Positions 43,854-59,812 are shown, counted from the stretch's first letter. The stretch: 64,000 nucleotides of DNA from Myxococcales bacterium (GCA_016703425.1 JADJCA010000011.1:186050-250049); one strand, 5' to 3'. The notes: generated by a model not told the origin, from the sequence alone. A program made the numbers and translations.

Positions 43854-45179
43854 TCACCGCACGGGTGGCGAAATTGGCAGACGCAGCGGATTTAGGTTCC
43901 GCCGCCGCAAGGCGTGGGGGTTCAAGTCCCTTCCCGTGCACTTCTCGAGAGATGAGGGCTCCGACATGCCGCCCTCTCCAGCGCTTGCAGCCGCGAATGC
44001 AGCCGCTTTGACGGCTGCAAACTCAGGAATTGCTGCGTCGAGGGGAGCGAGGTCGCCGAGCTCGGTCTCGAGTGCGGTGCGCGCGGCGCGGCGGTAGCGA
44101 TTGATCATTTGCGAGGAGCGATGGCCCGTGCGGTCGGCGACCCATGTTTCGGAACGCCCGTTGGCCAGCGCGAGGGTGATGAACGTCGCGCGAAGATCGT
44201 GAATGCGGATTGGCTGGCGCGCGTCCGAGTCCTCGAAGAGCTCGGGACGGTCGACGCCCGCGGCTCGGAGATGCTCGCGGAGCTTGTCGGCCAAGTGGGT
44301 GCGGTCGACGAGGCCCTCGAAGACGAGGTCGCTCGAGGCTCGCATGTCGCGCCACGCGCTGAGAGCGTCGACGACGCCCGGGCTCATCTTCCACGCGCGA
44401 GCGTCGTCGGTCTTGTTCGTGTCGAGGCGAATCACGCCGCGCTCGAGGTCGACGTCGGCCCAGGTGAGGCGTTGTGCCTCGTCGCTCCGCATCCCCTCTC
44501 GCGCGAGGAACCCGTAGAAGACGCGGTGCGCGAGCGGCACGCTCGACGACGCGAGGAGCTTCGCGTCTTCGGCCGGATAGAGGTACGGCAACGCCTTCGC
44601 GCGTGGCGACTTGGGGAGAAAGCCGCGAGGGAGCGGCGAGCTCTTTAGTAAGCGGCACGGGTACACCGCGATCCCGAGGACGCGAATCATGAGCTGCGCA
44701 ACGTGCCGCCTCGAGGACGCCGACAGCTCGCCAGGAAGGCGGCGAAGAACCTCCGCCGCGTGGTCGATGGTGAACGCGTCGAGCGGCACCTCGCCGACGA
44801 CCGGATAGACGTGCTTCTCGAGGCGCCCCTCGTCGTCGTCGCTCGTTCGCTTGCGGCTCACATGGTCGGGGTAGCGGCGCGCCAGCTCGCCACTCGTCCA
44901 GTCTTCGGCGAACTTGCGGAAGGTGAGCGGGCCAGCCTTCGGGGGTTCGGCTTTTTTGACGATGACGCCGGCGACGATGCCTTCGACGGCACGACCAAGC
45001 TCGGCCATCTTCGCCTCGTCGGCGAGAGCGGCGCTCTCCGCAAGCTTCTCGACGAAGTCGACCGCGCCGGCCACGCGGAGGCGGTTCACGAGGGCCTGAA
45101 TGGCCTTCGCTCGCTGGTCGGCGGTCTCCGCGTCGACGCACCACGGGAGCGCTTCGTTGCGGCGCACACCAGGCGCCAC
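43854..45179 (-). CDS. tyrosine-type integrase (phage integrase family)
   Basis: C-terminal catalytic region HDLRATFITLALANGRSETWVADRTGHRSSQMINRYRR (R..H..R..Y). The last ~28 codons read through the antisense tRNA, so the true 3-prime end is uncertain. Confidence 0.85.
   Translation of the reverse strand: MAPGVRRNEALPWCVDAETADQRAKAIQALVNRLRVAGAVDFVEKLAESAALADEAKMAELGRAVEGIVAGVIVKKAEPPKAGPLTFRKFAEDWTSGELARRYPDHVSRKRTSDDDEGRLEKHVYPVVGEVPLDAFTIDHAAEVLRRLPGELSASSRRHVAQLMIRVLGIAVYPCRLLKSSPLPRGFLPKSPRAKALPYLYPAEDAKLLASSSVPLAHRVFYGFLAREGMRSDEAQRLTWADVDLERGVIRLDTNKTDDARAWKMSPGVVDALSAWRDMRASSDLVFEGLVDRTHLADKLREHLRAAGVDRPELFEDSDARQPIRIHDLRATFITLALANGRSETWVADRTGHRSSQMINRYRRAARTALETELGDLAPLDAAIPEFAAVKAAAFAAASAGEGGMSEPSSLEKCTGRDLNPHALRRRNLNPLRLPISPPVR
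43859..43940 (+). tRNA. tRNA-Leu (anticodon UAG), type II with long variable arm
   Basis: Manual fold: acceptor GCACGGG/CCCGTGC (7 bp), D-stem GCG/CGC, anticodon stem GCGGA/TCCGC, loop TTTAGGT giving anticodon TAG, 13-nt variable arm, T-loop GGTTCAAGTCC. CCA not encoded. Confidence 0.75.
43891..43944. repeat. attL core: 54-bp direct repeat, the 3-prime half of tRNA-Leu
   Basis: tttaggttccgccgccgcaaggcgtgggggttcaagtcccttcccgtgcacttc is identical to 59759-59812. Confidence 0.85.
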
Positions 45180-45240
45180 GACGATGCGGGCGAAGTAGCG
45201 GCCGCGGATGCAGCAAGCGCCTCCGCGCCGCGGGGTCGAC

Positions 45241-45426
45241 TTATTTCTTCGACTTCTTCTTGGTCAGCCCCGCACGCTCCGCTTCCTCGCGAATGAGTTG
45301 CCGGACGGCGTCCGTCATCGAGAGCCGCCTCGTCTCCGAGATGCGCTCGAGCTCGCCCCGCTCGTCGAGGCTGAGACGGAGGAAGATCCCCTTCGTGCGG
45401 TGTCGGTCGGGTTGGGCGGCGGGCAT
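45241..45426 (-). CDS. ribbon-helix-helix (CopG/Arc-like) DNA-binding protein
   Basis: MPAAQPDRHRTKGIFLRLSLDERGELERISETRRLSMTDAVRQLIREEAER shows the RHH beta-alpha-alpha pattern. Short 61-aa form chosen. Confidence 0.55.
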   Translation of the reverse strand: MPAAQPDRHRTKGIFLRLSLDERGELERISETRRLSMTDAVRQLIREEAERAGLTKKKSKK

Positions 45427-45565
45427 GTGGCTATCCATGCCTAGCACGCGCTTTCGACAATGGAAACGCTATTTCTGGCGATGCTTTTTCACATCGATGC
45501 GTTCCGTGGAAGGTCGCGGGGTTGCGGGGCCGCGTTCGTGATGCGAATAGGTCTCGCCGAAGCGG

Positions 45566-45985
45566 CTATTGCGCACCGCGTTCGAGGTTGGCCTGAAAGA
45601 CACCGACGACCTTGTCGCGCATCTCGCGTGACGAGATGTCCAAGAGGGACGCGTGCGCCGGCTTGAGTTCCGCGATTTGGCAGTCGTGTGACGAATATCG
45701 GACATCGACGCCGATCTTCCGAAGGGCAGAGGCAGCGAAGCGGGCCACTCCGTACCCCTTCCACGCCGGCTTCGCGGCCTCCAGCGACGCCAGGTCGTTC
45801 GGGAGGCGAGACGCGACATACACCGATGGCCCGTAGTTGCTCGGGGTCGGGGTACCCTCGAATTCCTTCGTCGGAAGCGACGCGGTTTTCACCACTCGTC
45901 CCTCGATATGGGTGGGGTGAATCAGGCGCAACACAGCTTCTTCGTCACCGACCGGCACAAGGTCGGACGCCGGCGGACGAATCAC
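45566..45985 (-). CDS. hypothetical protein (139 aa), GTG start overlapping the upstream stop (GTGA)
   Basis: Protein-like from VIRPPASDLVPVGDEEAVLRLIHPTHIEGRVVKT. The track ORF N-terminal 60 aa is Arg-rich junk. Confidence 0.4.
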   Translation of the reverse strand: MIRPPASDLVPVGDEEAVLRLIHPTHIEGRVVKTASLPTKEFEGTPTPSNYGPSVYVASRLPNDLASLEAAKPAWKGYGVARFAASALRKIGVDVRYSSHDCQIAELKPAHASLLDISSREMRDKVVGVFQANLERGAQ

Positions 45986-46494
45986 TTGCCGCGTCGCTGG
46001 TCGAGCAGCCGGGTTGTACGCAACAGAAGATCGCCAAGCGACGAGAACGTCTCTTCGGTGCGCTCCGACGGGCTCGACGCGGACACGACATGTTTCGCAT
46101 CCCCAAGCTCCGCAAGTACGGTCCGCTCGCCATCGCGCCATTCGAAGTGGATGTACCCATCTCCGCACGGCGAGATCATCGGCCGGGGGACATCGAACAA
46201 CACGACCATCGCGACGAACGAGCGCGCCGATTCCCAGCGTGACGCTGGAAAAGCTTCAGCCCCCTCATCGTCCCATCCCGGCAACCGGGTAACGACCTCG
46301 AGCCGCTTCAGTGTTTCGCGCGCCTCATCAAGCCACGGCTGTCGCCGCGCCGTGCGGGGCCCGGTGGGCTTCGGACGCGCGACTACGGGCAGCGGCGGCG
46401 GCTCCAGCTTACGCTCGACGCCGCTCTCCGGCGGCGGCGGCACGCGCCACCGTTGACCTTGCGTCTGTCGACGGTCGTAGGCGTGTTCGCTCAC
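45982..46494 (-). CDS. hypothetical protein (170 aa)
   Basis: WDDEGAEAFPASRWESARSFVAMVVLFDVPRPMISPCGDGYIHFEWRDGERTVLAELGDAKHVV has good composition. ATGA overlap with the upstream gene. Confidence 0.45.
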   Translation of the reverse strand: MSEHAYDRRQTQGQRWRVPPPPESGVERKLEPPPLPVVARPKPTGPRTARRQPWLDEARETLKRLEVVTRLPGWDDEGAEAFPASRWESARSFVAMVVLFDVPRPMISPCGDGYIHFEWRDGERTVLAELGDAKHVVSASSPSERTEETFSSLGDLLLRTTRLLDQRRGK

Positions 46495-46778
46495 TGAATC
46501 CTCCCTGAGGTTGGGCTTGGCTGAACAAGATCCATGACCATCGCCACGAGTTGGAGGGCCTGCCCTTTGCCCATGATGACCCGCGTCCTCACGAGCGCAG
46601 GTAGCACTTGCTTGCCGCCCTCCTCACGGATGGCTTGCGGCTGCACGGAGCAGAAGTCGAGGTAAACCTCGTCATCCGACGCCGACAGCGCCACATGGTT
46701 CGAGTGGACCTCGGGCAAGTCGCGCGGGTCGGCAGGGTAGATCGGCTTGAACTCCTGGATGTTTATCCGGTCGGCCAC
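46491..46778 (-). CDS. hypothetical protein (95 aa)
   Basis: MADRINIQEFKPIYPADPRDLPEVHSNHVALSASDDEVYLDFCSVQPQAI. First gene of a three-gene translationally coupled cassette. Confidence 0.45.
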   Translation of the reverse strand: MADRINIQEFKPIYPADPRDLPEVHSNHVALSASDDEVYLDFCSVQPQAIREEGGKQVLPALVRTRVIMGKGQALQLVAMVMDLVQPSPTSGRIQ

Positions 46779-46893
46779 GGGGTCTCCTCGGGCGGGAAGA
46801 TATGCGCTCCGGAGGGAACACGCACGTTCGGCGTAGTATGCCCCGCCCGCATGCTCTACGGGGGTTCAGTGGCGCCTTGCTGAGCACCGTCGC

Positions 46894-48003
46894 TCACGCC
46901 CTCACCTTCGACGCGCCGGTGAGGATGACGCCGGTGATCGGAACGGGCGCGAGAAGCACGCTCTCGAATGCGCCCGCCGTTGGTGAAACCCCCGAGAACG
47001 GCGTCCCGGGCGGGATGGTGCACGACACGACATCGCCAACGCGCGCGACCGCTTGGAGGCCGCCGCCGAGCGATAGCTCAGTCACGCCGCCGGCGGCGTC
47101 GAACGAAACAACGCGAGGCTTGGCGGGGTCGCCATTCTTCCAGGTGACACCGACGCGCGTCCCTCGAGGCACCTTCGCGGTCGTGCCCGGGGTGCCGAAG
47201 TCAATCGGGACGCCGGCGAGGTCCGGAAAGCGGGGGTCCTCGAGGTCGAGCTCGAGCGTCCCGTCGGCCGCTTGGAGGATGACGGTCGCGGCGTAGGTGC
47301 CGAAATAGTCGACGTGTGAGACCGCCCGACGGATGAGGGCGTCGAGGGTCGCGCGGTCGCCGACCTCGAGGACCATCGCGGTCCCCTGGTCTCCGACCGA
47401 GGCCGTCGCTCGAGCGACGCGCTCGCCGGCGACCGTCGTGCCCGGGAGGGCCCATCGCCGCACCTCGACGCGCCCGGTCGCGCTGTCGCGGTTGAGGATG
47501 TCGAGGTCGACGAGGCCGGCGTCGGGCCACGTCGGGGCCTTGAGCAGGAGCGATCCCGCCGGGGTCATGCGCCACGCGAGGCCGAGGGAGCGGGCGAGCG
47601 AGGAGAGCGCGAGGGCGGCGTGCGAGCCCTCGCGGGTCCAGTGCTCGAGCTCGACGTCGACGTCGCTCGCGGGGTCGAGTGTCTCGCCTGCCTCCGTTGC
47701 GATGTCATTCGCGACCGTGCGCGCGGAGACGCGGCGATAGTGTCGAGCGGCGAGGACCTTCGGCATGCCGCCGCCACCGCCGACGATGCGAGCCTCGACG
47801 GTGCCGGCAAACGACGCGCCACGGCGCGCGGCGCCGCGGAACGTGCCAACGCCTTCCCACTCGAGCGACACGGCTCCGGCGACGACGGACGCGTCGGAGC
47901 CCTCGACCTCGACGTCGGCCCACCACGCGCCCTCGAGGGGCACGACGAGGCGAGCGCGCACCACACGGGCGCCGTTGAGGGTGACGAGTGAGTTGTTACG
48001 CAT
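46894..48003 (-). CDS. phage tail-associated protein (370 aa) downstream of the tape measure; possibly a distal tail protein
   Basis: Start MRNNSLVTLNGARVVRARLVVPLEGAWWADVEVEG at 48001-48003, overlapping the TMP end. Beta-rich. Function inferred from position only. Confidence 0.45.
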   Translation of the reverse strand: MRNNSLVTLNGARVVRARLVVPLEGAWWADVEVEGSDASVVAGAVSLEWEGVGTFRGAARRGASFAGTVEARIVGGGGGMPKVLAARHYRRVSARTVANDIATEAGETLDPASDVDVELEHWTREGSHAALALSSLARSLGLAWRMTPAGSLLLKAPTWPDAGLVDLDILNRDSATGRVEVRRWALPGTTVAGERVARATASVGDQGTAMVLEVGDRATLDALIRRAVSHVDYFGTYAATVILQAADGTLELDLEDPRFPDLAGVPIDFGTPGTTAKVPRGTRVGVTWKNGDPAKPRVVSFDAAGGVTELSLGGGLQAVARVGDVVSCTIPPGTPFSGVSPTAGAFESVLLAPVPITGVILTGASKVRA

Positions 48004-49792
48004 GACCTGCCTCCAACGCTGATCCCTCAAGTGCGGACGCGAACTCTTCGCCGAGACTTCGGCCGAGTCGGCGGCCGTAGCTCTCCGCGCTCTCGCCCTC
48101 GCGCCGCCCATCGGCATTGACCGTGACGGTGACGTTGTTGGTGCTTCGAGCCCCGGAAGGCCTCCCGAGGTCGTGTGGCGCGGACGCGGAGACGGCGCGC
48201 GGCGCCGTGTCGGCCGCATCGAGGCGCGTCGCGAGGTTCTCGAGGCTGAACGCGTCACTTCCCGCCTGGACCTGGGAGAGCAAGGAACTCTCAGCGCCTC
48301 CGGTCGCGAACTCCGCCGCGCCTGGTCCGGTCTTGATTCCCAGGGCGCTCCTCACCGCGGGCGGGAGCTGGTCAACCAGACTTCCGAGGCGAGAGAGCAA
48401 GCCGGCCCACGCCGACGACAAGCCTTGCCAAATGCCCTCGACGATGTCGGTCCCGACCTTCACGAAACGATCCCAGGACATGCCGAGCTCGAGCGGGAGG
48501 CTCCGCCAGAAGTCGAGGAACTTTTGCCAGCGGTCGACGACCCAACCGGCAGCGGCCGCGACCACGGCGCCGCCGACTACAATCGCGCCGAAGACGAGGC
48601 CGACGACAGTGCCGACGCTCTCGAAGCCGCGTGTGAGGCGGTCGAGGTGGTCGGTGCCGCTGATTCCCAACATGGCGAGGATGTCGGAGAAGCGCTCGAA
48701 GGTTGCGAGCGCTCCCTTCCCGCCGGCGGCTAGCCCATCGATGAAGGCGGCCCCCATCTTCGACAGCGGCTCGAGAACGTCGAGGACGCGCGACAGCCCC
48801 TTCGTCGCGTCGGGGTTCCCGAAGGCGCGCGTGATGGCGTCGCCGATGGTCTCGATGATGCGAACGACGCGGCCCCCCGTGTCGCTCTTTGGGTTTAGGG
48901 CGTTGCCGAGGTCCTCGAGGAACTTCATGCCCCCGCCGCCCTTGAAGTTGGCGGCGGTCACGAGCTCGAAGGGCCTCGACGCGAGCGTCGACGTGAGGCC
49001 GGTCATCGTCTTGGCCATCTTCGCCTGAAGCGAGCCGGCGTTCCCGCCGCTCATTCCGACCGTGATGGCCTCGAGGATGGCGCCGACGCCTTGGTCGGCC
49101 GTGATCTTCCCGGCTTGCTGTAGCTTGTCGAGCTCGTTCCGCGTCTTCCCGAGCGTCTTCCCGAGCGAGTCATAAACGAGCTTTTGCGAGACGCCCGCCT
49201 CCGCGAGCTGCATCATCTCTTCGCCAGAGAGCTTGCCCTTCGCCTTGATTTGGCCGAGCGCGCGAACGACGCTCTCAATGCCCTCTTGACCCTTGAGGAC
49301 GCCGACGTCGCCGACGACGTTGAGGACGTCGAACACCTCGCCCTGCTTGAAGCCGGCGATGAGGAGCTTTTGGATGTTCCCGACGACGTCCTTCGTCGCG
49401 AAGGGTGTCACCGCGGCGAAGTCGACGGCCTTGTTATAGATGTCGGCCGCGGCTTCCTTGGTGCCGAGCATGACCTCGAAGCCGACGAGCGTGTTCTCCT
49501 TGAAGGCGAGCGACTCGGCCGCGAACTTCGCGCCGAGCACAGCGCCGCCGACAGCGACGGCGCCCGCAACAAGGGCGACCGACTTGAGGCCGCCGGCGAC
49601 GTTCTTGAGGAATTCGCCCGAGCCGGAATTTAGTTCCTTGATGCCCTTCGCCGCGCCCGGCATGAATTGCCCTTGGGCGTTGCGGAGGGGGCGCATCGCT
49701 CGATCCAACCCGTCGAGAGAGGCCGTGGCCTTGCGGGCCGGGCCGCTCACGCGGTCGAGGAGCTCGAGGACAAAGGTGAGGGTGTCAGCCAT
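47996..49792 (-). CDS. phage tail tape measure protein
   Basis: 598 aa. Tape-measure domain VVRALGQIKAKGKLSGEEMMQLAEAGVSQKLVYDSLGKTLGKTRNELDKLQQAGKITADQG. Gly/Ala-rich hydrophobic segments. Confidence 0.8.
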   Translation of the reverse strand: MADTLTFVLELLDRVSGPARKATASLDGLDRAMRPLRNAQGQFMPGAAKGIKELNSGSGEFLKNVAGGLKSVALVAGAVAVGGAVLGAKFAAESLAFKENTLVGFEVMLGTKEAAADIYNKAVDFAAVTPFATKDVVGNIQKLLIAGFKQGEVFDVLNVVGDVGVLKGQEGIESVVRALGQIKAKGKLSGEEMMQLAEAGVSQKLVYDSLGKTLGKTRNELDKLQQAGKITADQGVGAILEAITVGMSGGNAGSLQAKMAKTMTGLTSTLASRPFELVTAANFKGGGGMKFLEDLGNALNPKSDTGGRVVRIIETIGDAITRAFGNPDATKGLSRVLDVLEPLSKMGAAFIDGLAAGGKGALATFERFSDILAMLGISGTDHLDRLTRGFESVGTVVGLVFGAIVVGGAVVAAAAGWVVDRWQKFLDFWRSLPLELGMSWDRFVKVGTDIVEGIWQGLSSAWAGLLSRLGSLVDQLPPAVRSALGIKTGPGAAEFATGGAESSLLSQVQAGSDAFSLENLATRLDAADTAPRAVSASAPHDLGRPSGARSTNNVTVTVNADGRREGESAESYGRRLGRSLGEEFASALEGSALEAGHA

Positions 49793-50081
49793 TGCGCGCC
49801 TCCGCGACGTTGAAGATCAGCGCTTCGTCACCGAGCCCGACGAGGCCCACGACGGAGCTGGGGCGTGCGGCGCTCCTCGCGCTCTCGTACCGCTGAGCCA
49901 ACGCTGGCCACTTCTCGCGCAGCTCCCGAAGCAGGTCGCGTGCGAGCACGACCGACGCTTCGCAGTCTTCTCGCACAAGCACGGCGAGACTGGCCGGCCT
50001 GTGCCCTAGCGCCATCATCGCGAACAGCTTCGGTCGAAGCGCTTGCTCCCATCGTTCAAAGTCGGTCGGCGTCGGATTCAT
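49785..50081 (-). CDS. hypothetical phage protein (98 aa)
   Basis: Clean small ORF immediately upstream of the TMP; position suggests a tail assembly chaperone. Confidence 0.4.
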   Translation of the reverse strand: MNPTPTDFERWEQALRPKLFAMMALGHRPASLAVLVREDCEASVVLARDLLRELREKWPALAQRYESARSAARPSSVVGLVGLGDEALIFNVAEARNG

Positions 50082-50094: not shown

Positions 50095-50913
50095 TCACTC
50101 CGCCGCCGTGGGGGGCTCGTTGTTGAATGTCACTGGCGCGAGCCTCTCGACGACCGCCGAGAAGAACGCCGCCGTGGGCTCGCTCTCCCACGGCCACGCG
50201 AACCCTTGCGAGAACCCGACGGCGGGGGCTTCGCGCGGCTGAACCCACGCCCCGAGCCGCATGAAGTTCGGGTCACCGGGCGGAGGCGGCGTCTCGCCTC
50301 GAGCGTGGGCGAGCTCAGCGATGGTGCGCTGACTCAAGTGGAGAGCACGCGCGACGAGCGCCTCGAGCGCGCCGAAGCCGGAGATGTTCGTCTCCCGCGA
50401 TGACGCTCGCAGGTCGAGCGCGTCGGTGGCACCAAGCTCCGTCGCCCGCGTAGCCATGGCATGAAACACGCGTGCCTTCGTCGAGAGCCTCGCGCGTATC
50501 GCCGCGAGGCGGTCGGACAGCTCGGCGACCTCGAGGACATCCTCAGCGACGAGCTCGTCGAACGCCTGCGCCGTCACTTGGGGCGCGAGGATGGCCAGCG
50601 CGGCAGCGTTCGCGTTTGCCGTTGCGAGTTCAAGCGCCCGAGTTGCTTTCGCCACAACCGCACGCTTCCAGCGCGCCATGGCCTCGAGACGGGAGAGCTC
50701 GAGCTCGAGCGGCTCGACGTTCTTGGTCCAGGCCTTTGGGTCGGCCATGTGGGCATCCCTTGCGCGCTCGAGCGCGGCGCGTGCGGCGTCGACCTCGCTG
50801 GCGGCCTGTCGTGCGGCGGTCTCCGCGCCCTCGAGCGCGGCGCGTGCTTCGCGCACCTTCGCCTCGTCGTCGTCGTGGCGCTTCTCTCTGGCGATCGGCG
50901 TGAGCGCGTTCAT
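50095..50913 (-). CDS. hypothetical coiled-coil phage protein (272 aa)
   Basis: Start MNALTPIAREKRHDDDE at 50913. Long Ala/Glu/Arg helical region. The N-terminal 76 codons of the track ORF were rejected. Confidence 0.45.
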   Translation of the reverse strand: MNALTPIAREKRHDDDEAKVREARAALEGAETAARQAASEVDAARAALERARDAHMADPKAWTKNVEPLELELSRLEAMARWKRAVVAKATRALELATANANAAALAILAPQVTAQAFDELVAEDVLEVAELSDRLAAIRARLSTKARVFHAMATRATELGATDALDLRASSRETNISGFGALEALVARALHLSQRTIAELAHARGETPPPPGDPNFMRLGAWVQPREAPAVGFSQGFAWPWESEPTAAFFSAVVERLAPVTFNNEPPTAAE

Positions 50914-51122
50914 GAGCGGGGCTCCTTGACTTGGGGGGCCTTCATGTCCGCGAGGGCGCGTTCCGTTTCCGCATCCTCGTGTGACGTGGCGAGATGGCAG
51001 AGGACGGCGAAACGACGGAGGCCTTCCCCAACGGTCCGCGCGCCGGTGGCGGACCTCAGCACGTCGTGAACGAGCCCAACGCGCTGCGCAGCCTGCTCGG
51101 CGGTCATGGCGGGAGTTCCCAT
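50910..51122 (-). CDS. hypothetical small phage protein (70 aa)
   Basis: ATGA overlap downstream and TGATG overlap upstream. Confidence 0.35.
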   Translation of the reverse strand: MGTPAMTAEQAAQRVGLVHDVLRSATGARTVGEGLRRFAVLCHLATSHEDAETERALADMKAPQVKEPRS

Positions 51123-51616
51123 CAGAGCACCCCTTCGTCAATCATCCGTTTTTGCGTGGCGACGTAGACGTCGGCCGACAGGCCGAGAACCCTCAGCGTC
51201 GCCTCGTCGGGGACGTCGATGGTGCGCGCGCCGTGGTGAACGACGCGCGTCGCCGGTGACGCGCTTTCGCGCTGAAGCGTTGCTACCTGCCGCTCGAGCG
51301 GCACCGGATGAAGCGTGCCGTCGGCGATCTGCTTCCGCTGTACCTCGATGAACTCGTCGCGCGTCATGCCGAGGAGCCGCAGGGTCGCGGCGGGAGGCAC
51401 TTCGACGCCGTCGGCGGTGAAGGTGGTTCGGTCGTTGGTGTTCATGGTTTGGGCTCTTTCTTCTGTCGGCACGAAGGGCGCCGAGTGGTTTGAGGGTGGG
51501 CCAGCGGGTGAGCGTGAAGCGGGGCCGTCGTCGCCGGATGACGGCGAGAGCACGATGGGAATGAAGAGAGCGTCGACGACGACCGTGCCCTCGACGTTGA
51601 AGCGTCGGTCGGTCAT
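51122..51616 (-). CDS. hypothetical phage protein with internal duplicated 26-aa motif
   Basis: ATLRLLGMTRDEFIEVQRKQIADGTL and ATLRVLGLSADVYVATQKRMIDEGVL. Start ATG overlaps the TerL stop (ATGA). Confidence 0.4.
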   Translation of the reverse strand: MTDRRFNVEGTVVVDALFIPIVLSPSSGDDGPASRSPAGPPSNHSAPFVPTEERAQTMNTNDRTTFTADGVEVPPAATLRLLGMTRDEFIEVQRKQIADGTLHPVPLERQVATLQRESASPATRVVHHGARTIDVPDEATLRVLGLSADVYVATQKRMIDEGVL

Positions 51617-53058
51617 AGGGATCGGTCTCCTCCGTTGGTTCCGCCCTCTCCGTCGACGAAACGGAGGGAGTGATCGCGGTCGTCGTCAGAAGCATCATCG
51701 ATGGCCAGAAGCGGCCCCCACTTGTCGTGAGCACCACGGAGGGACTGACTGAAGGCCTGGCCGATGCCGGTCATACGGAGCGGCGACGACGCGAAGGCAC
51801 CCGGGGAAGCGGCGAACGCGCCGGCAAGCGCATCGACCTGGTCGTCGTGCACGTCGCCGGCCCCGGTGAACGAGACGATCTCGCTCACGAACGCGTCGAG
51901 CCACGGGGCCGAGTTCGGCAGGAGCACGCGACCCGCATTCCACTTCGCGGCCACGGGCTGGGCTCGGGTGAACTTGTCCCCAATGGCAGGCCGGGCGTCG
52001 ATGCTGAGGCCTTGGCTTCGCATCATGTCGACGGTCCCCTTCTCCGTGCCACTCACGAACGCCGTAGCCCGCGCGCCGCCCCATCGATCGCGAAGGCCCT
52101 TGAGCGCGCCCATGAACTCGGGAGCGCGCACTTGCAGACGAAGCACCTCAAGCACGAAGTGAAGCGAGTCGCGGCCGCGGCCCGTCGTGCCGAGGACAAC
52201 GGCGACGGAGTAGTCGGCCCGCGTCTTCGTCGAATAGGCGAGGTCGACGCCAATTCGCACGTCGAGGCCATCGCGCGGAGGCGCGGCGTCGAAGACGTGA
52301 ACGTCTTGGAACAAGGCGCCGCCGCGGGGCATCGGCTGCCCCTGGTAGAGCGACGCCCATCCGTACGCGCCAATCTGCTCTTGGATGGCCCGAAGGCGCT
52401 CGACAGAGAACCGCTCGGGCCAGAGGGCACGGCCATGACCGTCGATTGCGGGGAGGCACACGTTCGCCCATCCGTCGCGGATGAGAGAGCCGGCCAGGTC
52501 GTCGGGATGCCACCGCGTTTGAATGACAATCGCGGAGCCGTTGGGCTCGAGCCGGGTGAAGGCGACGTCGTCGAACCACTCGCGCGTCTGTTGACGGCGG
52601 AGCGAGCTCTCCGCTTCGACGCGGTCCTTTACCGGGTCGTCGACGAGGAGGACGTCGAAGCCCTCGCCAGTGATGCCGCCGCCAATGCTCGTCGCCCACA
52701 CCCCGCCGTCCTCGACGCCCGTGCGCCAGTCGTGCTTGGACGCGGAATCCTCGGAGACGGTGACGTGTGCCGCGATGGCGAGCTCACGGGCCTTGCGGGA
52801 CTTCTTCTCGGCGAGCCGCTGGGCATAGCTCACATACGCGATCTGGGCGTCGGGCCGCTGTAAGAGCCACCAAGGGATCGCGTGGAGTACAGACTCCGTC
52901 TTCGCGTGGCGCGGAGGCACCGACACGACAGCGCGAACGGGCTCGACGAGGGCGCGCTCAAGGACCTCGAGGAACGGGCGAAGGTGCGTCGGCGCGACGT
53001 AGCGCGGCGAGAGAAGCGGAATGAACCGCTCAAGCGAAGCGATGCGGCGGGCCTTCAC
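51613..53058 (-). CDS. phage terminase large subunit (GTA/PBSX-type family)
   Basis: P-loop-like VSVPPRHAKTE, Walker B LLVDDP, TRWHPDDL, nuclease motifs GVDLAYS and HDDQVDAL. Confidence 0.85.
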   Translation of the reverse strand: MKARRIASLERFIPLLSPRYVAPTHLRPFLEVLERALVEPVRAVVSVPPRHAKTESVLHAIPWWLLQRPDAQIAYVSYAQRLAEKKSRKARELAIAAHVTVSEDSASKHDWRTGVEDGGVWATSIGGGITGEGFDVLLVDDPVKDRVEAESSLRRQQTREWFDDVAFTRLEPNGSAIVIQTRWHPDDLAGSLIRDGWANVCLPAIDGHGRALWPERFSVERLRAIQEQIGAYGWASLYQGQPMPRGGALFQDVHVFDAAPPRDGLDVRIGVDLAYSTKTRADYSVAVVLGTTGRGRDSLHFVLEVLRLQVRAPEFMGALKGLRDRWGGARATAFVSGTEKGTVDMMRSQGLSIDARPAIGDKFTRAQPVAAKWNAGRVLLPNSAPWLDAFVSEIVSFTGAGDVHDDQVDALAGAFAASPGAFASSPLRMTGIGQAFSQSLRGAHDKWGPLLAIDDASDDDRDHSLRFVDGEGGTNGGDRSL

Positions 53059-53633
53059 GGCTTCCCCTCCGTTTCGCCACTCGTCGCCTCAAACCATGGC
53101 GGGAGCGCACCGCCGTGCGTGGCCTTGCGCGCCTGCGCCTCGCGCACCGCGAGCTCGTAAGCCGCCAACAGGTTCTGCCGGCTAGCGTTCGCTAGCTGGC
53201 TCGCAGTCTGAAGCGTGGCCGCGTCGCCGCTGACCGCACCGCGCGCGAACAGGAAGCGCGAACTCGCAAGCTGAAGGGCGGCGCTGGCCACCATGGTCGA
53301 CGGGCCCGGACCACATGTGCCACCGGCCTGAAGCGCGAGCGCTTCGACGTGGCTGCGAAAAAACTCGTCGGCGGCGACCTGGAACGGGCGGAAGTCCGAC
53401 TCGGCGGCGAGCTCAGCGAGGCCAAGCCCAGCCACGAGGCGCGCCTTGTAGGCCTTCTTGAAGCCCCCCAGGGAGCCCAGGCGCTTGGCGGACTCTGGAT
53501 CGGCGACCGTGCCATCCCGGCGACGACGCACCGGCTCCGGCACACCCGGCACCGGCGCCGGAAGCTCGTCGGGCGGCAAGACCTCGATGCGGGGCACGCC
53601 CGCTCCGTTTCCGTGGCCAGTGCGAAGTGTCAT
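53055..53633 (-). CDS. hypothetical protein; position suggests the terminase small subunit
   Basis: Start MTLRTGHGNGAGVPRIEVLPP at 53633. Stop overlaps the TerL start. No motif recognised. Confidence 0.4.
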   Translation of the reverse strand: MTLRTGHGNGAGVPRIEVLPPDELPAPVPGVPEPVRRRRDGTVADPESAKRLGSLGGFKKAYKARLVAGLGLAELAAESDFRPFQVAADEFFRSHVEALALQAGGTCGPGPSTMVASAALQLASSRFLFARGAVSGDAATLQTASQLANASRQNLLAAYELAVREAQARKATHGGALPPWFEATSGETEGKP

Positions 53634-53938
53634 CAATGCCTCCGCGCATCGATGCGCTCGACGGGCAACCACCAAAGGCCCGCGTCGTCGTCGGCGACGA
53701 CGAAGACGGGGAGCGAGCGCGGACGGCGCGCGCCGAGATGTCGGGCGTAGCTGTCGAAACCGGCCGAACGAAGCCAACCGATGAACTCAGCGCGGGGAAG
53801 CACGCGAACGCCCTCGGGTTCGGCGCTGTCGATGTAGCAGGCGAGCGTCTCGACCGCGGCGCCGCGTCGCATGAAGGCTGCGAGCTGCCGCCGGAGCGAA
53901 GCGAGACGGGCGACGGCCAGGTGGGGACCCGTGGTCAT
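53633..53938 (-). CDS. hypothetical small phage protein (101 aa)
   Basis: MTTGPHLAVARLASLRRQLAAFMRRGAAVETLACYIDSAEPEGVRVLPRAEFIGWLRSAGFDSYARHLG. ATGA overlap downstream. Confidence 0.35.
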   Translation of the reverse strand: MTTGPHLAVARLASLRRQLAAFMRRGAAVETLACYIDSAEPEGVRVLPRAEFIGWLRSAGFDSYARHLGARRPRSLPVFVVADDDAGLWWLPVERIDARRH

Positions 53939-53972: not shown

Positions 53973-54293
53973 TCACGGCCAAAGCTCCTTCTCGAGCCGT
54001 TGGCGAAGGGCCTTGAGACGGAACCGGTCGCCAGCCCCAGGCTTCTCGAGCTCGAGCCAATCCTCGACCCGCGCGAGCGCGACCGACATGGCTTCCCGCG
54101 CGCGGCGCCTCGTCCCGAAGTCGGCGGGCGTGAACCCCGAGGCGCGGTAGCGCTCCGTGACACGTAGACGCGTCTCGGCGGCCAGGACGGCCCGGAGTAC
54201 CTCCGGCCATGCGATCGGCGTTCCTGGCGAGGGGGTCGACTTTTGCGAGCTTGTTTTCTCGAGGCGCCGTGAGGGCGCCGGATCGGTGTTCAT
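53973..54293 (-). CDS. hypothetical small phage protein (106 aa)
   Basis: MNTDPAPSRRLEKTSSQKSTPSPGTPIAWPEVLRAVLAAETRLRVTERYRASGFTPADFG. Confidence 0.35.
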   Translation of the reverse strand: MNTDPAPSRRLEKTSSQKSTPSPGTPIAWPEVLRAVLAAETRLRVTERYRASGFTPADFGTRRRAREAMSVALARVEDWLELEKPGAGDRFRLKALRQRLEKELWP

Positions 54294-54575
54294 GCTGCCC
54301 TCCGTCGCGGTGACGCGGGGGAGGCCCGGACCGCATGTAAGTGCTCGAAAGCTCGTCGCCCGGGGAAGAGCAGGCCACCGGAGCAGCCGCAAAGCGGCCG
54401 CCGGTGAGCCGGCTAGCCTCGGTTCCTCGACGCCGCAGCGGACTGCTCATCCGGTGAATCCGGCTGAAACGACCCTCCCCGCTTGGCACGAACGTGAGCC
54501 AGAGCAGGCCAAGTGCAGAATGCACGGGTTTACTGAAGCCAGATTCCGGGGCTCCCGTGACTTGTGCCACCGGGC

Positions 54576-56198
54576 TCATTGCGCGACTCCTTCCACGAGG
54601 AGGTCGTCGAAGAAGCCCGGCTCGTCTTCCGTGGGGGTGTGGGGACGCGTGAGGTCCGGATCCCGGTTAGGCCGATCATGTGGAACTTCGTCTTGGGAAC
54701 TAACCGGAACATGGTCACCACAGGACCCCACGTCCCCAACGGCTCGAAGCCCCGAGGTCCGCTCGGCCTCCGACAGGAGGCGTACTCCGCGCCAAGCGTC
54801 CAGGAACTTCGCGCCGTCGCGCTTGGTGGCGTCGGTGACTCCTTGTTCCCTGAGCTTTGCCGCGAACTTCTTCGCGTCCACTGGTCGGAAACCGTTCTCT
54901 TCGCACCACTCCGTGTAGACTGCACGAAGTAGCTTGCGGGTCTCAACGTCGCCGCGTGCACCGAAGACGCACCGGAGCCGGAAGAACTCGCCCACGAGGT
55001 CGCTCTCGTCGCGGTAGTCGGCCGTCGCCTTGGTCACCTCGGGAGGCTCACCGAGGCCACTGGCCTGCCACTCGAGACAACCGCGGACAGCCCACGCGAG
55101 GATGCCCGGCAGCTCCTCGCGCAGCTTGTCTACGAGGAGCGGATCGCGCTCGGCGGCGGGGATCGTCACGGTCCACGGGATGAGCCGTATGCGCCGCCAG
55201 ATCCCCTCATCGTCGCCGCGAACGCTCGGCCGATGGTTGCCCGCGATGAAGAGCTTGTGTGAGGCGCGAAGGACCAGAAGTCTTCCGACATGCGGCGAGC
55301 GCTGATTTCGTCGCCCCCGGTGAGGTCCTTCACGAGGCCCTCGTCGAAGGCACGGCCCTCTTCGATTTCGGCGCAGGCCACGAAGCGCGCCCCGAAGAGC
55401 ACCGTTAGCTCCGTCGGGTGTCGCTCCCCTCGAGAGCGAAAAAGGAGCCCGCGCGGGGCCGTGACGGCGTAGTCGCCCATCATGGCGCGCGTCGTCGCGA
55501 TGTACGTCGACTTGCCGTTGGCGCCGCCACCGAACAGGAAGCCGAGAACGTGCTCGCGGATGACGCCCGTCAGGGCGTAGCCCGCCATGCGCCGGAGGAA
55601 GGCGATCATTCCCGCGTTGGCGCCCATCGCGCGCCCGAGAAACGCATCCCACGCCGGGCACTTTGCTCTCGGGTCGTAGGCCACCGGTGAGAGCTTCGTG
55701 ATGAGGTCGTCGCGACTGTGGGCGCGGAGCTTGCCGCTGCGTAGGTCCAGGGTTCCGTTCGCCACGTTGAGGAGCCACGGATCGGCGTCGAGCCGGTCGT
55801 GCGTGACAGCCACGGCCTCATCGGCGCGGGCGAGATCAACCATCGCGTGGAGGCGCGGAGCGGCCTGCGACTTCAGCGCCCACTTCCAACCATCTTCGGC
55901 CGAGCGGTGCCGCTTCTCAGCGCGTCGCTTCGCCTTGTCGTCGTCGCGGCCGACCTGCTCGAGTTCGGCCATCGCCGCCGTGACAGCGCCGCGCGCGTCA
56001 CTGGCCATGGTGCGCGCGGTGTCGGCCGCGAGTCGTAGCGCCGCGTCGGTCTCGTCGAGTCGCCACCGGCGGCCGTCATAGACGAGCCAGCGCGACCACT
56101 TCGCGACGTGACGAACGTCGGCCCCGTGGAGCTCCACGAAGCGTTCAGCGTTGCGGAGGTCGGTGCCTTCGATGGTGAGCCGACTCATGACGCGCGCC
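54576..56198 (-). pseudogene. P4/D5-family primase-helicase (helicase/NTPase domain), interrupted by a frameshift near 55268-55276
   Basis: Frame A: MSRLTIEGTD...LGFLFGGGANGKSTYIATTRAMMGDYAV (Walker A)...ISARRMSEDFWSF. Frame B continues HKLFIAGNHRPSVRGDDEGIWRRIRLIPWTVTIPAAERDPLLVDKLREELPGILAWAVRG, the canonical P4-family continuation. The frames differ by one nt within a CACACA run. Confidence 0.7.
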
Positions 56199-57015
56199 TC
56201 CCCTCGAGGAGGGCGCCGTGCGGCATCGTCCCGCGCTCGCGCGCTTGCCGAACCTTTCGCCGAAGCTCGTGCTCGGACCACGGCGGGGAGCACGACTTGT
56301 TCCAATTACGGAGAAGCTCCAGCGACTCTCCGTCGGAAAGCCCGAATCCCCTCACGAGACGTTGGGCGACGACGAACGTATGGGCGTGCCCGTTGGCGCC
56401 CGAGATCGCGGGGGCAATCTTCTCGAGGTAGCGGCGCGCCCGATCAAACGCGTCCGGCGACGATGGCGATGCGGGGGCGCACGGCGCCGGCTCGACGCTG
56501 CGCCGAGTGGCCAGCTCCACAAGCCAGGCGGGCGCCTTGGCGATGGGTGTCCCAGGGGGCGAGTCCCACGCATAGCTTGCCGCGGTCACGCTCGGAGCAA
56601 CGAGGATGTAGCGCCTCGCGAACCCCTGCTCGTCGGCGCCGTGCAAGAAGTCGAGTCCCGGCCCGAGCTTGCCGCGGCAGTCGACGCCGCTTGGCATGAG
56701 AAACAAGTGATGCGCGCCGCCGCCGCCCGTGCGCGCGGTCTTGGTTGCGGGGAGCGGGCCATGCGCCTCGAGGATGCGCGCGAGCGTCTTGTCGCCCCCG
56801 CTCCGAGGGTCGACGTCGAGGACGGCAAGGGGCGGCGTGACCGCTATCGCGAGATTCGCGGACGGCCATCGTCGCGCCCACTCTTCGATGCGCGGCTCGA
56901 GCCGAGTGGCGTCCTTGACGCCGTGCTTCAGGAGCGGACGCTTCCCGCCCGGTTCGACGGGGAGAACGAAGAAGCCGAAACGCGCGTAACGCAGCGCGGC
57001 GACGAACCAGTTCAT
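56185..57015 (-). CDS. bifunctional DNA primase/polymerase (Prim-Pol) N-terminal domain plus PriCT-like C-terminal domain
   Basis: MNWFVAALRYARFGFFVLPVEPGGKRPLLKHGVKDAT is the Prim-Pol signature. HHLFLMPSGVDC follows. C-terminal HAHTFVVAQRLVRGFGLSDGESLELLRNWN. Stop overlaps the helicase start. Confidence 0.7.
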   Translation of the reverse strand: MNWFVAALRYARFGFFVLPVEPGGKRPLLKHGVKDATRLEPRIEEWARRWPSANLAIAVTPPLAVLDVDPRSGGDKTLARILEAHGPLPATKTARTGGGGAHHLFLMPSGVDCRGKLGPGLDFLHGADEQGFARRYILVAPSVTAASYAWDSPPGTPIAKAPAWLVELATRRSVEPAPCAPASPSSPDAFDRARRYLEKIAPAISGANGHAHTFVVAQRLVRGFGLSDGESLELLRNWNKSCSPPWSEHELRRKVRQARERGTMPHGALLEGRRAS

Positions 57016-57461
57016 GCCGCGGCTCCGCTCTTCGTGAGCTCGAGCTCTTCCCAGCGCGAGAGAATTCCGAAGGCCAGCCGAGCCGCGACCTCGGGATTCT
57101 CGGCGAAGAGAACGGGGCACGCATGGCGACCGACGAGGGAGGCGACGGTCCCGAGAATCGCGTTCGGATGAATGCGCCCGCGAAGCTCGACGAGGTCCGA
57201 GAGCTTCGCCTCGACAATGATGGCCCGACGCTCGAGAGAGGCGAGGCGCTCGAGCTGCCGGTCACGCCGCTCGGCGTCAAAGAACGTTCCCAGGAAATCC
57301 GCGGGCGCCTTCCTCTCTACTGCCGCGCGAGGCGCGAGGATGGGCGTCGAGTAGTCGCCCGCGGGCAACGCGACGCGGACGATCTCGACGATGTCGCCGA
57401 ACGTCCAAGGCGTTTGCTCGCGCGTGTCGACGACGACGGCGCGAAGGAGGTGGGGCATCAC
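57012..57461 (-). CDS. ERCC4/XPF-Mus81-type nuclease domain protein
   Basis: VVVDTREQ...LPAGDY...VERKAPADF is the ERCC4 catalytic signature (D..E...GDY...ERK..D). ATGA overlap with Prim-Pol. Confidence 0.6.
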   Translation of the reverse strand: MMPHLLRAVVVDTREQTPWTFGDIVEIVRVALPAGDYSTPILAPRAAVERKAPADFLGTFFDAERRDRQLERLASLERRAIIVEAKLSDLVELRGRIHPNAILGTVASLVGRHACPVLFAENPEVAARLAFGILSRWEELELTKSGAAA

Positions 57462-57646
57462 CGGACCTCCGCGGTCGAGGCCACCGCGCGGGACAGGTCG
57501 AGGCGTCGCTCGAGGAGCGCTATGCGCTCCTCAATGGCGTCGGCGAACTCGACGTGCCCTTCACCGTCGACCACGAAGAACGCGGCGCGGAGCGATGCCA
57601 GTTCGGCGCGGATGTCGAACCCGAAGAACGCGACATCGACCCTCAT
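57458..57646 (-). CDS. hypothetical small protein (62 aa)
   Basis: MRVDVAFFGFDIRAELASLRAAFFVVDGEGHVEFADAIEERIALLERRLD. ATGA overlaps on both sides. Confidence 0.3.
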   Translation of the reverse strand: MRVDVAFFGFDIRAELASLRAAFFVVDGEGHVEFADAIEERIALLERRLDLSRAVASTAEVR

Positions 57647-57996
57647 CGCCCGCCTCCCGCGACCTTGGTCGCCCCGAGCTCCGCGAGCACGTCGGCGAAG
57701 GCGTCGCGCGGGCCACTCGCTGGCGCCGCTGGCGCTTTCGCTTGAGGCTCGGCGGCATGGGCCGCGAGCCAAGCGTCGAGGTCCTCGCGACGCACAAGGA
57801 CCCGCTTGCCGGCTTTTACCGCGGGCAGCTCGCCCGAGCGAACGAGCCGAAGGTGCTTCGACTTGCCGAGAGGCGATGCATGCTGGTCTACGAGCTCGGG
57901 CGGCGGGGTCACCTCTGCGACGAGGGTGCCGCACACTTCGAGCAAGCCAGCGCGCCGCCGACAACGACCGCCACGATTGCACCGGTGCACTCGCAC
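57643..57996 (-). CDS. excisionase-family helix-turn-helix DNA-binding protein; start uncertain
   Basis: ASPLGKSKHLRLVRSGELPAVKAGKRVLVRREDLDAWLAAH matches the Xis/MerR-type HTH pattern LGVSRSTIYRLVRRGELPA.KIGRRWRFRREDLDAWL. Confidence 0.6.
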   Translation of the reverse strand: MRVHRCNRGGRCRRRAGLLEVCGTLVAEVTPPPELVDQHASPLGKSKHLRLVRSGELPAVKAGKRVLVRREDLDAWLAAHAAEPQAKAPAAPASGPRDAFADVLAELGATKVAGGGR

Positions 57997-58379
57997 GTGA
58001 GCCTCACGGCGCCCGCAGCCTTGATGTTATTCCGTATCGATGTAGAGTTCATGGGTCCTCGTTGGTGTCGAGGGCTCGGAGGCGTCGGGGGTCGAGTCCC
58101 GGCGCCTTCGGCGTTTGTGGTTTAGGCCGCTCGTTCACTCGCGGGCGGCAGGCCGGCGGGAGGGGCGAGACCGAGCTCGGTCATCGCGGCGGCAAGCTTC
58201 TGGCCGGCCCGGCCGCGAACAGCGTGAGCGCCTTCGGTGAGCGCTTTGGCGGCGGAGCGTGGGTCCACGTCCGCGGCGGCAGCGAGCTTGAGGACTGCGA
58301 TTCGGTCGGCGGTGCCCATGGCGAGCACAGTGGGCGCCATGCGGCTCGAATCAAAACAGCTTGCCGGCGGCCGGCATTG

Positions 58380-59396
58380 CTAACGCTTTTTGAGACGTCG
58401 TGATTTCTCGACCCGAAGCGCCGCCGGGGTAGTGCGCGGCATCTCGAGACGTTCAGCCATCACTTCAATGATCGCGCGTTCGATTTCGCCAGCGGCCGAG
58501 GGCACCCCGTCGAGGGCTCCCGATCGCCTCGGTGGCCGGCCACGCCGAACCTTCACGCGCAACACGCGGCGGATCGCTTCCAGCCCGATCTTGCGGGCCT
58601 CCTCGAGAAAAGGCCCCCCCGCGCCGATGTGGTTCAGCACAGCTCTCGCGGCCCGTTCCTCGTCGTGCACGCCATCCCGGTGAGATTGCCGAACCGCCTC
58701 GAGGAACCGCTGCCGAACCTGCGTGAGACGCCGTTCGCGCGGGCGGAACCAAGATCGCGTGGACGCTACGAACGCGCTCAAGCTCCTCGAGAGCGGGCAG
58801 GGTGTCGATCGGCCCATCCACGCGAGCCTCGAGGTCTTCGAGCCATCGTCGAAGGCTGGGCAGCATTCGGGCGATCTCGCCGGCCCGAAGGAGTTCGACG
58901 GTTGTGCGGCGCGCCGCCTCGTCGGACGCCACGCCCTCGCGCTTCGCGCGTTCCTCCACGGGCGTCGAGCCCGCGCTCGACGCGGCTCGCTTGGAAGTCA
59001 CCTCGCGCGCCTTCCGCTCTTTCGCCATCGCCCTTGCCCCCGCACCGGGAATGGTATCGCTCCACACAAGAGAAAGCGCGGCGCTCACGCATCACCCCGC
59101 GCACCGCGGGGTCCGCCTCGAGCTCGGCGACACGGGCCCCGAGGGCGCCCGCGATGGCTTCGTGCGCGGCGAGAAGGAGCTTCAGCTTCGATTGGGTGAG
59201 GAGGACGAGGTCGGCCACCGTGCCATCGTTGACGTTCTCGGACTCGTGCACGGCGCCGATGGCGTCGACGAGGCTCTCGACTTCGGCAAACGCGCCGGCG
59301 ACATCCCCCCGAATAGGAGACGGCCCGCCTCAGCGAAATGGGCGCCTCGAGGGCAACGGTCTCGAGTTCGAGCGCGCAGGTCGTACTGGTCTTCAT
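58380..59396 (-). pseudogene. hypothetical phage gene of about 335 aa, readable only by joining three frames at homopolymer runs (59305-59310, 59037-59041, 58736-58745)
   Basis: MKTSTTCALELETVALEAPISLRRAVSYSG / DVAGAFAEVESLVDAIGAVHESENVNDGTVADLVLLTQSKLKLLLAAHEAIAGALGARVAELEADPAVRGVMRERRAF / AMAKERKAREVTSKRAASS...ELERVRSVHAILVPPAR / ERRLTQVRQRFLEAVRQSHRDGVHDEE...RVEKSRRLKKR. Each junction sits at a C/G homopolymer or GCGCGC run. Confidence 0.35.
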
Positions 59397-59475
59397 GGTC
59401 GGATCGCTTTCTGCGGCGTCGTAGGCCGCCGTCGACGTCCCTCCACGGAGAGGCGCCGAAGGCGGACCACGCCGC

Positions 59476-59709
59476 CTATCCCGACCGCCCCTTTCGCCTC
59501 GCCGTCGCGAGGTCGGCCACGCCTTCGCGCGCGAGCCTCCTTGCCTTGAGCTCCTCGGCCACTTGTGCGACGACATCGAAGCGACCCGCCGCCGTCGCTG
59601 CTTCGAGCGCCCTCGCGAGACCCTCCTCGACGCGGTCCCCGAACGTGGCTGCGCTTTGCGGCTGCTCACCGACCGGCAGCTCGCTACCGACGGCAACACG
59701 GTTGGCCAT
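59476..59709 (-). CDS. hypothetical small protein (77 aa) at the attR-proximal end
   Basis: MANRVAVGSELPVGEQPQSAATFGDRVEEGLARALEAATAAGRFDVVAQVAEELKARRLAREG. Confidence 0.3.
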   Translation of the reverse strand: MANRVAVGSELPVGEQPQSAATFGDRVEEGLARALEAATAAGRFDVVAQVAEELKARRLAREGVADLATARRKGRSG

Positions 59710-59758
59710 CTTCCGGATATCGTTAGCGTCGACTCCCGATGCGTCGTCCTCCGAGGGC

Positions 59759-59812
59759 TTTAGGTTCCGCCGCCGCAAGGCGTGGGGGTTCAAGTCCCTT
59801 CCCGTGCACTTC
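59759..59812. repeat. attR core: 54-bp direct repeat, a partial tRNA-Leu 3-prime half
   Basis: Identical to 43891-43944. No 5-prime tRNA half is present here, so this is an integration scar and not a second tRNA gene. Confidence 0.85.

Follow-up and report, generated by a model that had tools for sequence, protein, structure and literature searches.

Phage-inducible chromosomal island-like elements (PLEs), satellites of the myophage ICP1 in Vibrio cholerae, encode a tail assembly chaperone (TAC), a tape measure protein (TMP), and the baseplate hub BhuB, and thereby replace the helper TMP and hub in contractile tails that are otherwise helper-built (PMC12987554). Chimeric tails with a satellite TMP and hub were shown only in 2025-26, and only for these Vibrio elements. 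Chromosomal islands that are phage-inducible and form capsids (cf-PICIs) carry their own small and large terminase subunits (TerS and TerL), and these TerLs group in clades made up of satellites alone, apart from the TerLs of phages (10.1101/2022.09.08.507074). Predicted tmp genes are also found in cf-PICIs (PMC12987554), and a TMP is encoded by the mycobacterial EPIP satellites described in a 2025 preprint (PMC12822802). Here we describe a phage-derived island of 15,868 bp in the metagenome-assembled genome (MAG) of a Myxococcales bacterium, which carries genes for a TerL, a TMP, and a predicted hub and in which no capsid gene was recognised. The island lies within a stretch of 64,000 nucleotides (GCA_016703425.1 JADJCA010000011.1:186050-250049), referred to as the window, with positions counted from its first letter. 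The evidence is computational throughout, and we assign a probability of roughly 0.55 to the reading of the island as an integrative phage satellite that depends on a helper, or as an element very recently derived from such a satellite, belonging to a Myxococcota (Polyangia) lineage.

The left edge of the island is marked by an intact tRNA-Leu(UAG) gene on the plus strand (43859-43941), the only tRNA found in an ARAGORN scan of the window, which reported its anticodon; against Rfam RF00005 it scores 49.7 bits, compared with a gathering score of 29. The 3′ part of this gene forms attL, a 54-nt core (43891-43944) that recurs as attR, a copy of the tRNA 3′ end (59759-59812), as established with a repeat finder and by direct comparison. 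An earlier note on this DNA, made from the sequence alone, had counted all 54 nt as tRNA; the repeat is exact as claimed, but it comprises the last 51 nt of the tRNA and 3 nt downstream. A perfect 54-mer repeated within 16 kb cannot be due to chance, and the start-to-start spacing of its copies, 15,868 bp, is the size of the excised circle. Directly abutting the tRNA, as that note had it, is a gene for a tyrosine integrase (43854-45179, minus strand; 441-aa open reading frame (ORF); Pfam Phage_integrase E = 1.2e-16, with Phage_int_M). Judged from the sequence, the island was integrated by this tyrosine integrase at the 3′ end of tRNA-Leu(UAG), with regeneration of the tRNA. The description of a tRNA-integrated, att-flanked, phage-derived element, including the intact state of the tRNA, is supported. 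All credible coding in the island is on the minus strand, also as described before, while the plus-strand ORFs show antisense-type GC at the codon positions; the features given below are on the minus strand unless stated otherwise. The gene joins by ATGA/GTGA-type overlaps could likewise be verified: overlaps of 4-8 nt link four runs of genes, namely Xis-p62-ERCC4-PrimPol-helicase, TerS-TerL-p164, p65-p272, and p98-TMP-hub (p followed by the length in residues denotes an ORF without an assigned family), and coupling by start/stop overlaps largely extends from Xis through the hub. Island and flanks do not differ in G+C content (0.683 versus 0.681). A metagenome scan with the tRNA sequence, intended as an empty-site control, returned a single 1-kb contig (L038). 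Its flanks show no relationship to the DNA on the left or the right of the island, and it was ruled out on these grounds as an empty-site or an occupied-site control.

The packaging function of the island resides in a 481-aa TerL (51613-53058), whose earlier identification is confirmed by a match to phrog_38 at E = 3.5e-81 together with Terminase_6C and Terminase_6N. Conserved residues that fall in invariant columns of the alignment include Walker A K53, Walker B D140-D141, and the acidic residues of the nuclease. The 192-aa ORF immediately before it (53055-53633) had been proposed as a putative TerS. What stands of this proposal is that the gene is conserved and co-inherited, since a TerS-like gene overlaps TerL from the upstream side in every case, with 20-61% identity across 10 relatives; the assignment is by position and co-conservation only, and no match was found in Pfam, PHROG, or the PDB, the last of which was also searched with the family profile. 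A 101-aa ORF (53633-53938) precedes the putative TerS, and no convincing gene occupies the approximately 640 nt upstream of it.

The tail component consists of two recognisable genes. The 598-aa TMP (47996-49792), also named in the earlier note, matches Pfam TMP_3 at 7.6e-18 and phrog_12798 at 1.7e-20, and 10 of its 14 PHROG matches are annotated as tape measure protein. The tail protein of about 370 aa next to it is 369 aa long (46894-48003) and was resolved with AlphaFold2 (AF2) and Foldseek as a VgrG-like protein without the beta-helix needle. The AF2 model, built on an alignment of homologues, has a predicted local distance difference test score (pLDDT) of 76; in a Foldseek search of the PDB it retrieved the spikes VgrG, Afp8, and Pvc8 of the VgrG and extracellular contractile injection system type at 1e-13 to 1e-11, as well as Mu gp44 (1wru) at 1.3e-9, and the sequence profile matches the gp5-type oligonucleotide/oligosaccharide-binding (OB) region of VgrG. 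Nine homologues share 28-34% identity with this protein. On a Mu-like myophage contig the homologue follows the TMP gene and precedes the genes for a gp25-like sheath initiator and Baseplate_J, and on a second prophage contig it likewise stands before a Baseplate_J gene. On account of these fold matches, the profile match in the OB region, and the gene context in myophages, the predicted identity of the 369-aa protein is that of a central hub of the baseplate that continues into a spike domain with an OB fold of the gp5/gpV type. One prophage-like contig (L036) encodes counterparts of both TMP and hub, at about 30% identity each. The earlier statement that the island keeps tail functions is not supported, as only the TMP, the hub-spike, and perhaps a chaperone are present. 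Because most of the tail is absent, a helper would have to supply most of it in addition to the head.

Between TerL and the TMP lie only four small ORFs, p164 (51122-51616), p65 (50910-51107), p272 (50095-50913), and p98 (49785-50081), which together amount to 599 codons, in agreement with the previous estimate of about 600. None of them has a match in Pfam or PHROG, and sequence and profile searches of the PDB were empty for p98, p164, and p272; p65, for which no family was found, was also called independently on a Logan contig. The only homologue of p272 was p272 itself, both among 5.8 billion proteins and in an exhaustive HMMER search of 1.8 billion. Modelled by AF2 without an alignment, this protein is composed of helices only, forming a long helical hairpin with no beta structure (residues 7-110 at a pLDDT of about 90-97), and comparison of the model with the PDB produced generic coiled-coil noise only. 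An HK97-fold capsid or portal protein is ruled out for p272 by this all-helical prediction; it is a candidate scaffold-like or hijack protein. The p98 gene is located directly upstream of the TMP gene and overlaps it; by position only, it is a candidate tail assembly chaperone, and in the relatives L001 and L008 ORFs of 92-97 aa precede TMP-sized genes. An internal duplication of about 30 aa was observed in p164 (VEVPPAATLRLLGMTRDEFIEVQRKQIADG and IDVPDEATLRVLGLSADVYVATQKRMIDEG).

No ORF of portal size exists in the island, and no hidden Markov model (HMM) of a portal matched there. The same applies to HMMs from Pfam and PHROG for prohead protease, capsid, tube, sheath, baseplate wedge, fibre, and lysis genes. 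Portal, major capsid protein (MCP), sheath, tube, and Baseplate_J probes taken from related phages revealed no relic by tblastn anywhere in the window. Genes for capsid-size redirection (Sid/Psu/Delta, CpmAB, Ppi) had no Pfam or PHROG match either, p272 being only a candidate for such a role. The earlier note had reported that portal, MCP, and prohead protease are missing and had proposed a check of the small ORFs for cryptic HK97-fold or portal proteins; HMM, fold, and tblastn results are all negative, the profile searches of the small ORFs came back empty, and the predicted fold of the largest is entirely helical. Measured against a complete prophage, the island has no portal or MCP, no complete tail, and no lysis cassette. 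It also contains no truncated ORFs at supposed deletion junctions and appears as a compact operon without junction pseudogenes.

Related TerLs, from a pool of roughly 3,600 homologues, place the island in a wider context. A TerL identical to that of the window is annotated in a 'Myxococcales bacterium' MAG and also occurs in the sequencing run ERR12160659, and the closest others, at 49-69% identity, derive from Labilithrix, Polyangiaceae, other Myxococcota MAGs, and metagenome contigs, with two copies in one Labilithrix genome. Around these close TerLs, the gene for a replicative helicase is followed by one or two small genes and then by a TerS-like gene and TerL, after which only small genes come. 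In the window and in L009, L001, and L021 the order of helicase, TerS, TerL, small genes, integrase, and tRNA is shared. Each of these elements uses a different tRNA: the window element is bounded by exact att repeats of 54 nt at tRNA-Leu(UAG) and spans 15,868 bp, L009 has exact 46-nt repeats at tRNA-Met and spans 14,920 bp, L001 has 22-nt repeats at tRNA-Leu(CAG) and spans 15,964 bp, and L021 is found at tRNA-Leu(UAA) on a contig that ends inside the element, which leaves its size incomplete. Ordinary phages look different at this point. Nearly all of the 80 IMG/VR contigs with a related TerL have an ORF of at least 450 aa directly downstream, and in the ordinary phages among some 90 related TerLs this downstream ORF measures 450-800 aa. 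A portal was confirmed in two of them, L007 (Phage_portal E = 1.1e-45) and L019 (Portal_Mu E = 1e-45), true phages in which it immediately follows the related TerL. When 94 TerLs were placed in a neighbour-joining (NJ) tree, a single clade with a bootstrap of 66/100 took in every portal-less island, with one myophage (L085) nested in it.

Among the proteins encoded downstream of TerL, none shows sequence conservation when the window element is compared with its relatives. Of 72 post-TerL proteins in a census, only four received informative assignments. In L008 a prohead protease (phrog_617/phrog_80, at 11530-12387) and a TMP were identified, and in L034 an MCP (phrog_1005 E = 1.8e-15, at 3320-4375), with no portal found in the post-TerL region of either. 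These lone head genes suggest different hijacking solutions, or stages of decay, within the lineage. In L001 a baseplate hub (phrog_177 E = 2.7e-36) stands just after an 857-aa TMP-sized gene, the same slot as in the window, while neither BLASTP nor hhalign detected any similarity between the TMPs or hubs of the two elements. Vertical conservation of the tail module in the family was thus rejected, and it would appear that one functional slot, TMP plus hub, is kept by different genes in the window and in L001. A Phage_base_V match from the census (E = 5e-4) was not assignable to a particular protein and was not used.

L085 (IMGVR_UViG_3300050500_000138), the only portal-bearing TerL nested among the portal-less islands, looks complete: ORFs of 502, 487, 318, 490, and 176 aa follow its TerL and, going by their sizes, may include portal, capsid, sheath, and tube. 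For the helper lineage, this phage is a candidate model.

If the island is a helper-dependent satellite, its cycle might run as follows. Induced by, or together with, a contractile-tailed helper, it would excise as a 15,868-bp circle and replicate, and its own terminase would package the DNA into procapsids made of helper portal and capsid proteins. The island TMP and hub-spike would replace the helper counterparts at the centre of the baseplate, and helper tube, sheath, wedges, and fibres would assemble around this satellite-encoded core, giving chimeric tails as in the Vibrio PLEs. Lysis functions would also come from the helper, and p272 and its small neighbours would be candidates for capsid-size redirection or for interference with the helper.

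Several points weigh against a satellite. A TerL without a portal of its own must dock on a foreign one, and the satellite literature examined reports a TerL encoded by the satellite itself for cf-PICIs alone, and these also have their own portal (10.1101/2022.09.08.507074). The TerL clade has moderate NJ support (66/100) and contains one true phage, and the assignments of TerS and chaperone are positional only. The post-TerL region is unconserved, and relatives with only a protease (L008) or only an MCP (L034) fit the independent erosion of prophages. The helicase gene, described below, carries a frameshift that could mean decay of this copy or a homopolymer error in the MAG.

Some of these observations are what the main rival explanation would lead one to expect, namely that a temperate myophage has lost its head genes and most of its tail and lysis genes and persists as a defective prophage that is inert or only excisable. 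The frameshifted helicase, the different scraps kept by the relatives (protease in L008, MCP in L034, TMP and hub in the window and L001), and the approximately 30% identity of TMP and hub to those of the full prophage-like contig L036 all agree with such an origin. We nevertheless regard it as unlikely, since three complete elements of 14.9-16.0 kb with the same gene order sit at different tRNAs between exact att repeats, the repeat of the window is a perfect 54-mer, and neither truncated ORFs at the supposed junctions nor relics of structural genes were found. Moreover, the portal-less TerLs group together instead of each lying beside a different intact phage, and the catalytic residues of TerL are intact. 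A lineage of mobile elements, and not one prophage in decay, is what the conserved size and the exact att sites at different tRNAs point to, together with the intact TerL residues, the compact operon, and the grouping of the TerLs from portal-less islands. Those genes that are still there appear functional, as TerL has intact motifs, the hub folds confidently, and the genes are translationally coupled. The earlier note had left the choice between a deleted prophage and a satellite-like element undecided; the headless 15-16 kb layout recurring at other tRNAs and the grouping of the TerLs now favour the satellite.

An island that serves defence or competition without being transduced, in which TerL, TMP, and hub are kept to disturb packaging and tail assembly of invading phages and not for transfer of the island itself, is a distinctly improbable alternative. 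Interference with tail assembly is known in satellites and islands, as in the case of Rta in PLE11 (PMC12987554) and of the Tai systems, and a 170-aa cargo ORF of the island weakly resembles a candidate defence protein in PADLOC. Against it stand a full TerS-TerL pair with intact ATPase and nuclease motifs and a dedicated replication module, which are the needs of a packaged replicon, and the conserved size of 15-16 kb, which suggests a packaging constraint. An autonomous miniature virus with its capsid and portal hidden among the fast-evolving p164, p65, p272, and p98, which have no detectable homologues, deserves hardly any credence, as these ORFs total only 599 residues, p272 is predicted to be all-helical and so incompatible with an HK97 fold or a portal, and no tube, sheath, or fibres are encoded. 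A gene transfer agent is ruled out by the presence of integrase, att sites, and replication genes and the absence of a capsid, and a tailocin by the same three features and the absence of tube and sheath.

Among the described satellites, the PLEs resemble the island in their tail genes. Both have a TMP of similar length (582 aa in PLE11 versus 598 aa; PMC12987554) with a hub next to it, both fall in a size class of about 15-18 kb with their own replication module and an integrative lifestyle, and in both the capsid and the rest of the contractile tail come from the helper, which is shown for PLEs and proposed for the island. The PLE chaperone lies beside the TMP; in the island this is the place of p98, which overlaps the TMP start and has no family or PDB match. 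The differences are equally clear. No sequence relationship to PLEs was detected in searches that did not include PLE protein profiles, the host phylum is Myxococcota, and chimeric tails are experimental in Vibrio PLEs and would be conjectural here. The island encodes a full TerL, whereas the word 'terminase' is absent from the PLE text (PMC12987554). Its integrase is a tyrosine recombinase that targets a tRNA, in contrast to the large serine recombinase of the PLE type.

With cf-PICIs the island has in common an integrase, an AlpA-type regulator, a primase/replication module, and its own TerS and TerL (the TerS being positional), and with some of them a predicted tmp gene (PMC12987554). However, cf-PICIs bring a portal, a protease, an MCP, and head-tail connectors of their own and take nothing but tails, whereas the island has none of these genes; without the capsid module it would therefore have to steal heads. 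Conversely, the absence of tail genes, taken as a cf-PICI trait, does not apply to the island with its TMP and hub, and no HNH gene was found in it. P4-like satellites and classical PICIs resemble the island in their tRNA or other unique integration site, their size of about 10-16 kb, the AlpA/Xis-type helix-turn-helix (HTH) protein, the primase-helicase of D5_N/P4-alpha type (frameshifted in the island), and dependence on helper virions, which is presumed for the island. Their redirecting proteins of the Sid, Psu, Delta, or Cpm type are not recognisable in it, and neither group is known to carry TerL, TMP, or hub. The EPIPs, satellites of the Mycolicibacterium prophage HerbertWM, are also small and have a TMP gene, and an alteration of helper tails has been proposed for them (PMC12822802). 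They differ in their size of about 11 kb, a serine integrase, the presence of TerS only, and MCP, scaffold, and connector genes, and they have no TerL, hub, or Prim-Pol/helicase module of the island type. Judged by the features that define them, none of the PLE, cf-PICI, P4, and classical PICI families includes the island; by analogy, it would work most like cf-PICI packaging combined with a PLE tail core.

On this basis we tentatively propose, with less confidence than the satellite reading itself, a previously unrecognised satellite lineage in Myxococcota whose theft is limited to capsid shell and outer tail, its members bringing TerS and TerL and at least two of them also the inner core of the tail (chaperone, tape measure, and hub-spike). 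A literature search on phage satellites in Myxococcota returned no satellite described from this phylum, and the combination of an own TerL and tail core without any capsid gene is a division of labour not described in the satellite literature examined. If the proposal is correct, this would be the first type of TerL-bearing satellite without capsid genes and an independent second origin of the chimeric-tail strategy of PLEs. A family of tRNA-integrating islands from soil and wastewater Myxococcota, unrelated to the PLEs but with the same tail-core trio, would show tail-core replacement to be a general satellite strategy, and the unrelated genes in the TMP-hub slot of two members would point to selection on function, which could serve to bypass blocks that helper or host impose on TMP and hub during DNA entry. 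The island also raises the question of how a satellite TerL docks on a foreign portal. Such islands get annotated as incomplete prophages, and satellite finders built on the gene sets of P4, PICI, cf-PICI, and PLE would probably miss them.

The replication module is read from the attR side. The excisionase/AlpA-type HTH protein (57643-57996; Pfam HTH_17 4.9e-9), whose true start is uncertain, is not the first gene from attR as previously thought, since about 1.7 kb of small unannotated ORFs come before it (about 72, 145, 157, and 77 aa, at 58122-59709). It is followed by p62 (57458-57646), an ERCC4-type nuclease of 149 aa (57012-57461; Pfam ERCC4 1.2e-12) with a homologue in L009, a bifunctional primase/polymerase (56185-57015; Prim-Pol 1.1e-31), and a D5/P4-alpha-type primase-helicase (54576-56188; D5_N 6.5e-38 and DUF5906, with a weak Pox_D5 match C-terminally). 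These matches confirm the identities given to Xis, nuclease, Prim-Pol, and helicase; for the last, the D5-type identity holds, but a 1-nt frameshift had been overlooked. Direct reading of the sequence places a 1-nt deletion near 55262, at 'cacacaag', which splits the helicase into two frames, and one added base, most simply AA to AAA, restores the frame. L001 and L009 have intact single helicase ORFs of 544-645 aa that span both halves of the window gene, and exact-protein look-ups for the window helicase gave no match. The frameshift is either a homopolymer error of the MAG assembly or a true inactivating mutation. The former is possible because the source is a MAG, of the IPG50_ locus-tag series that we take to be long-read wastewater MAGs.

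Upstream of the Xis-to-helicase operon, a 125-nt intergenic gap (57997-58121) holds a GC-rich hairpin of 15 pairs (58076-58111, plus strand) and could be a regulatory or origin region. A promoter scan found no sigma-70-like sites, a result that says little for Myxococcota. Terminator-like matches numbered 19 against a mean of 8.9 in shuffled sequences, roughly double, with no evident pattern.

At the opposite end, the catalytic domain of the integrase comprises residues 212-366, and the protein is 48% identical to the integrase of L021. The tail of its ORF crosses the att core and the whole tRNA in antisense (43854-43944), which gives the 441 aa of the integrated state; in the excised circle the ORF would run in frame into the 77-aa attR ORF (59476-59812) and reach 523 aa. 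The same overlap of integrase and tRNA was seen in L001, L009, and L021; GC-rich DNA has few stop codons, and this may be all that lies behind it. Next to the integrase is a 68-aa ribbon-helix-helix-like protein (45241-45447) with a weak NikA-like match (E = 0.0023) and a homologue near the L021 integrase. Three accessory or 'cargo' ORFs (45566-46168, 45982-46494, and 46491-46778) separate it from the hub, and beyond weak matches (DUF3467, and phrog_30544 for the 170-aa ORF) no Pfam or PHROG family was found for them. The 170-aa ORF (45982-46494) has, besides the phrog_30544 match, a weak partial match to the PADLOC candidate PDC-M32A (E = 3e-6) and may be an anti-phage accessory gene; the PADLOC search gave weak or coiled-coil matches only.

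The island is flanked by ordinary chromosomal genes, which encode a tRNA-guanine transglycosylase, a hydrolase, and a protein of the OmpA family. A 1,266-aa ORF (39929-43729, plus strand) that lies immediately upstream of the tRNA has good coding statistics and no Pfam domain. About 11 kb upstream of the island, a 675-aa protein (30987-33014, plus strand) combines a Major Vault Protein shoulder domain (E = 3.8e-25) with a Vault_3 repeat and is, by these domain matches, a predicted bacterial homologue of the vault protein.

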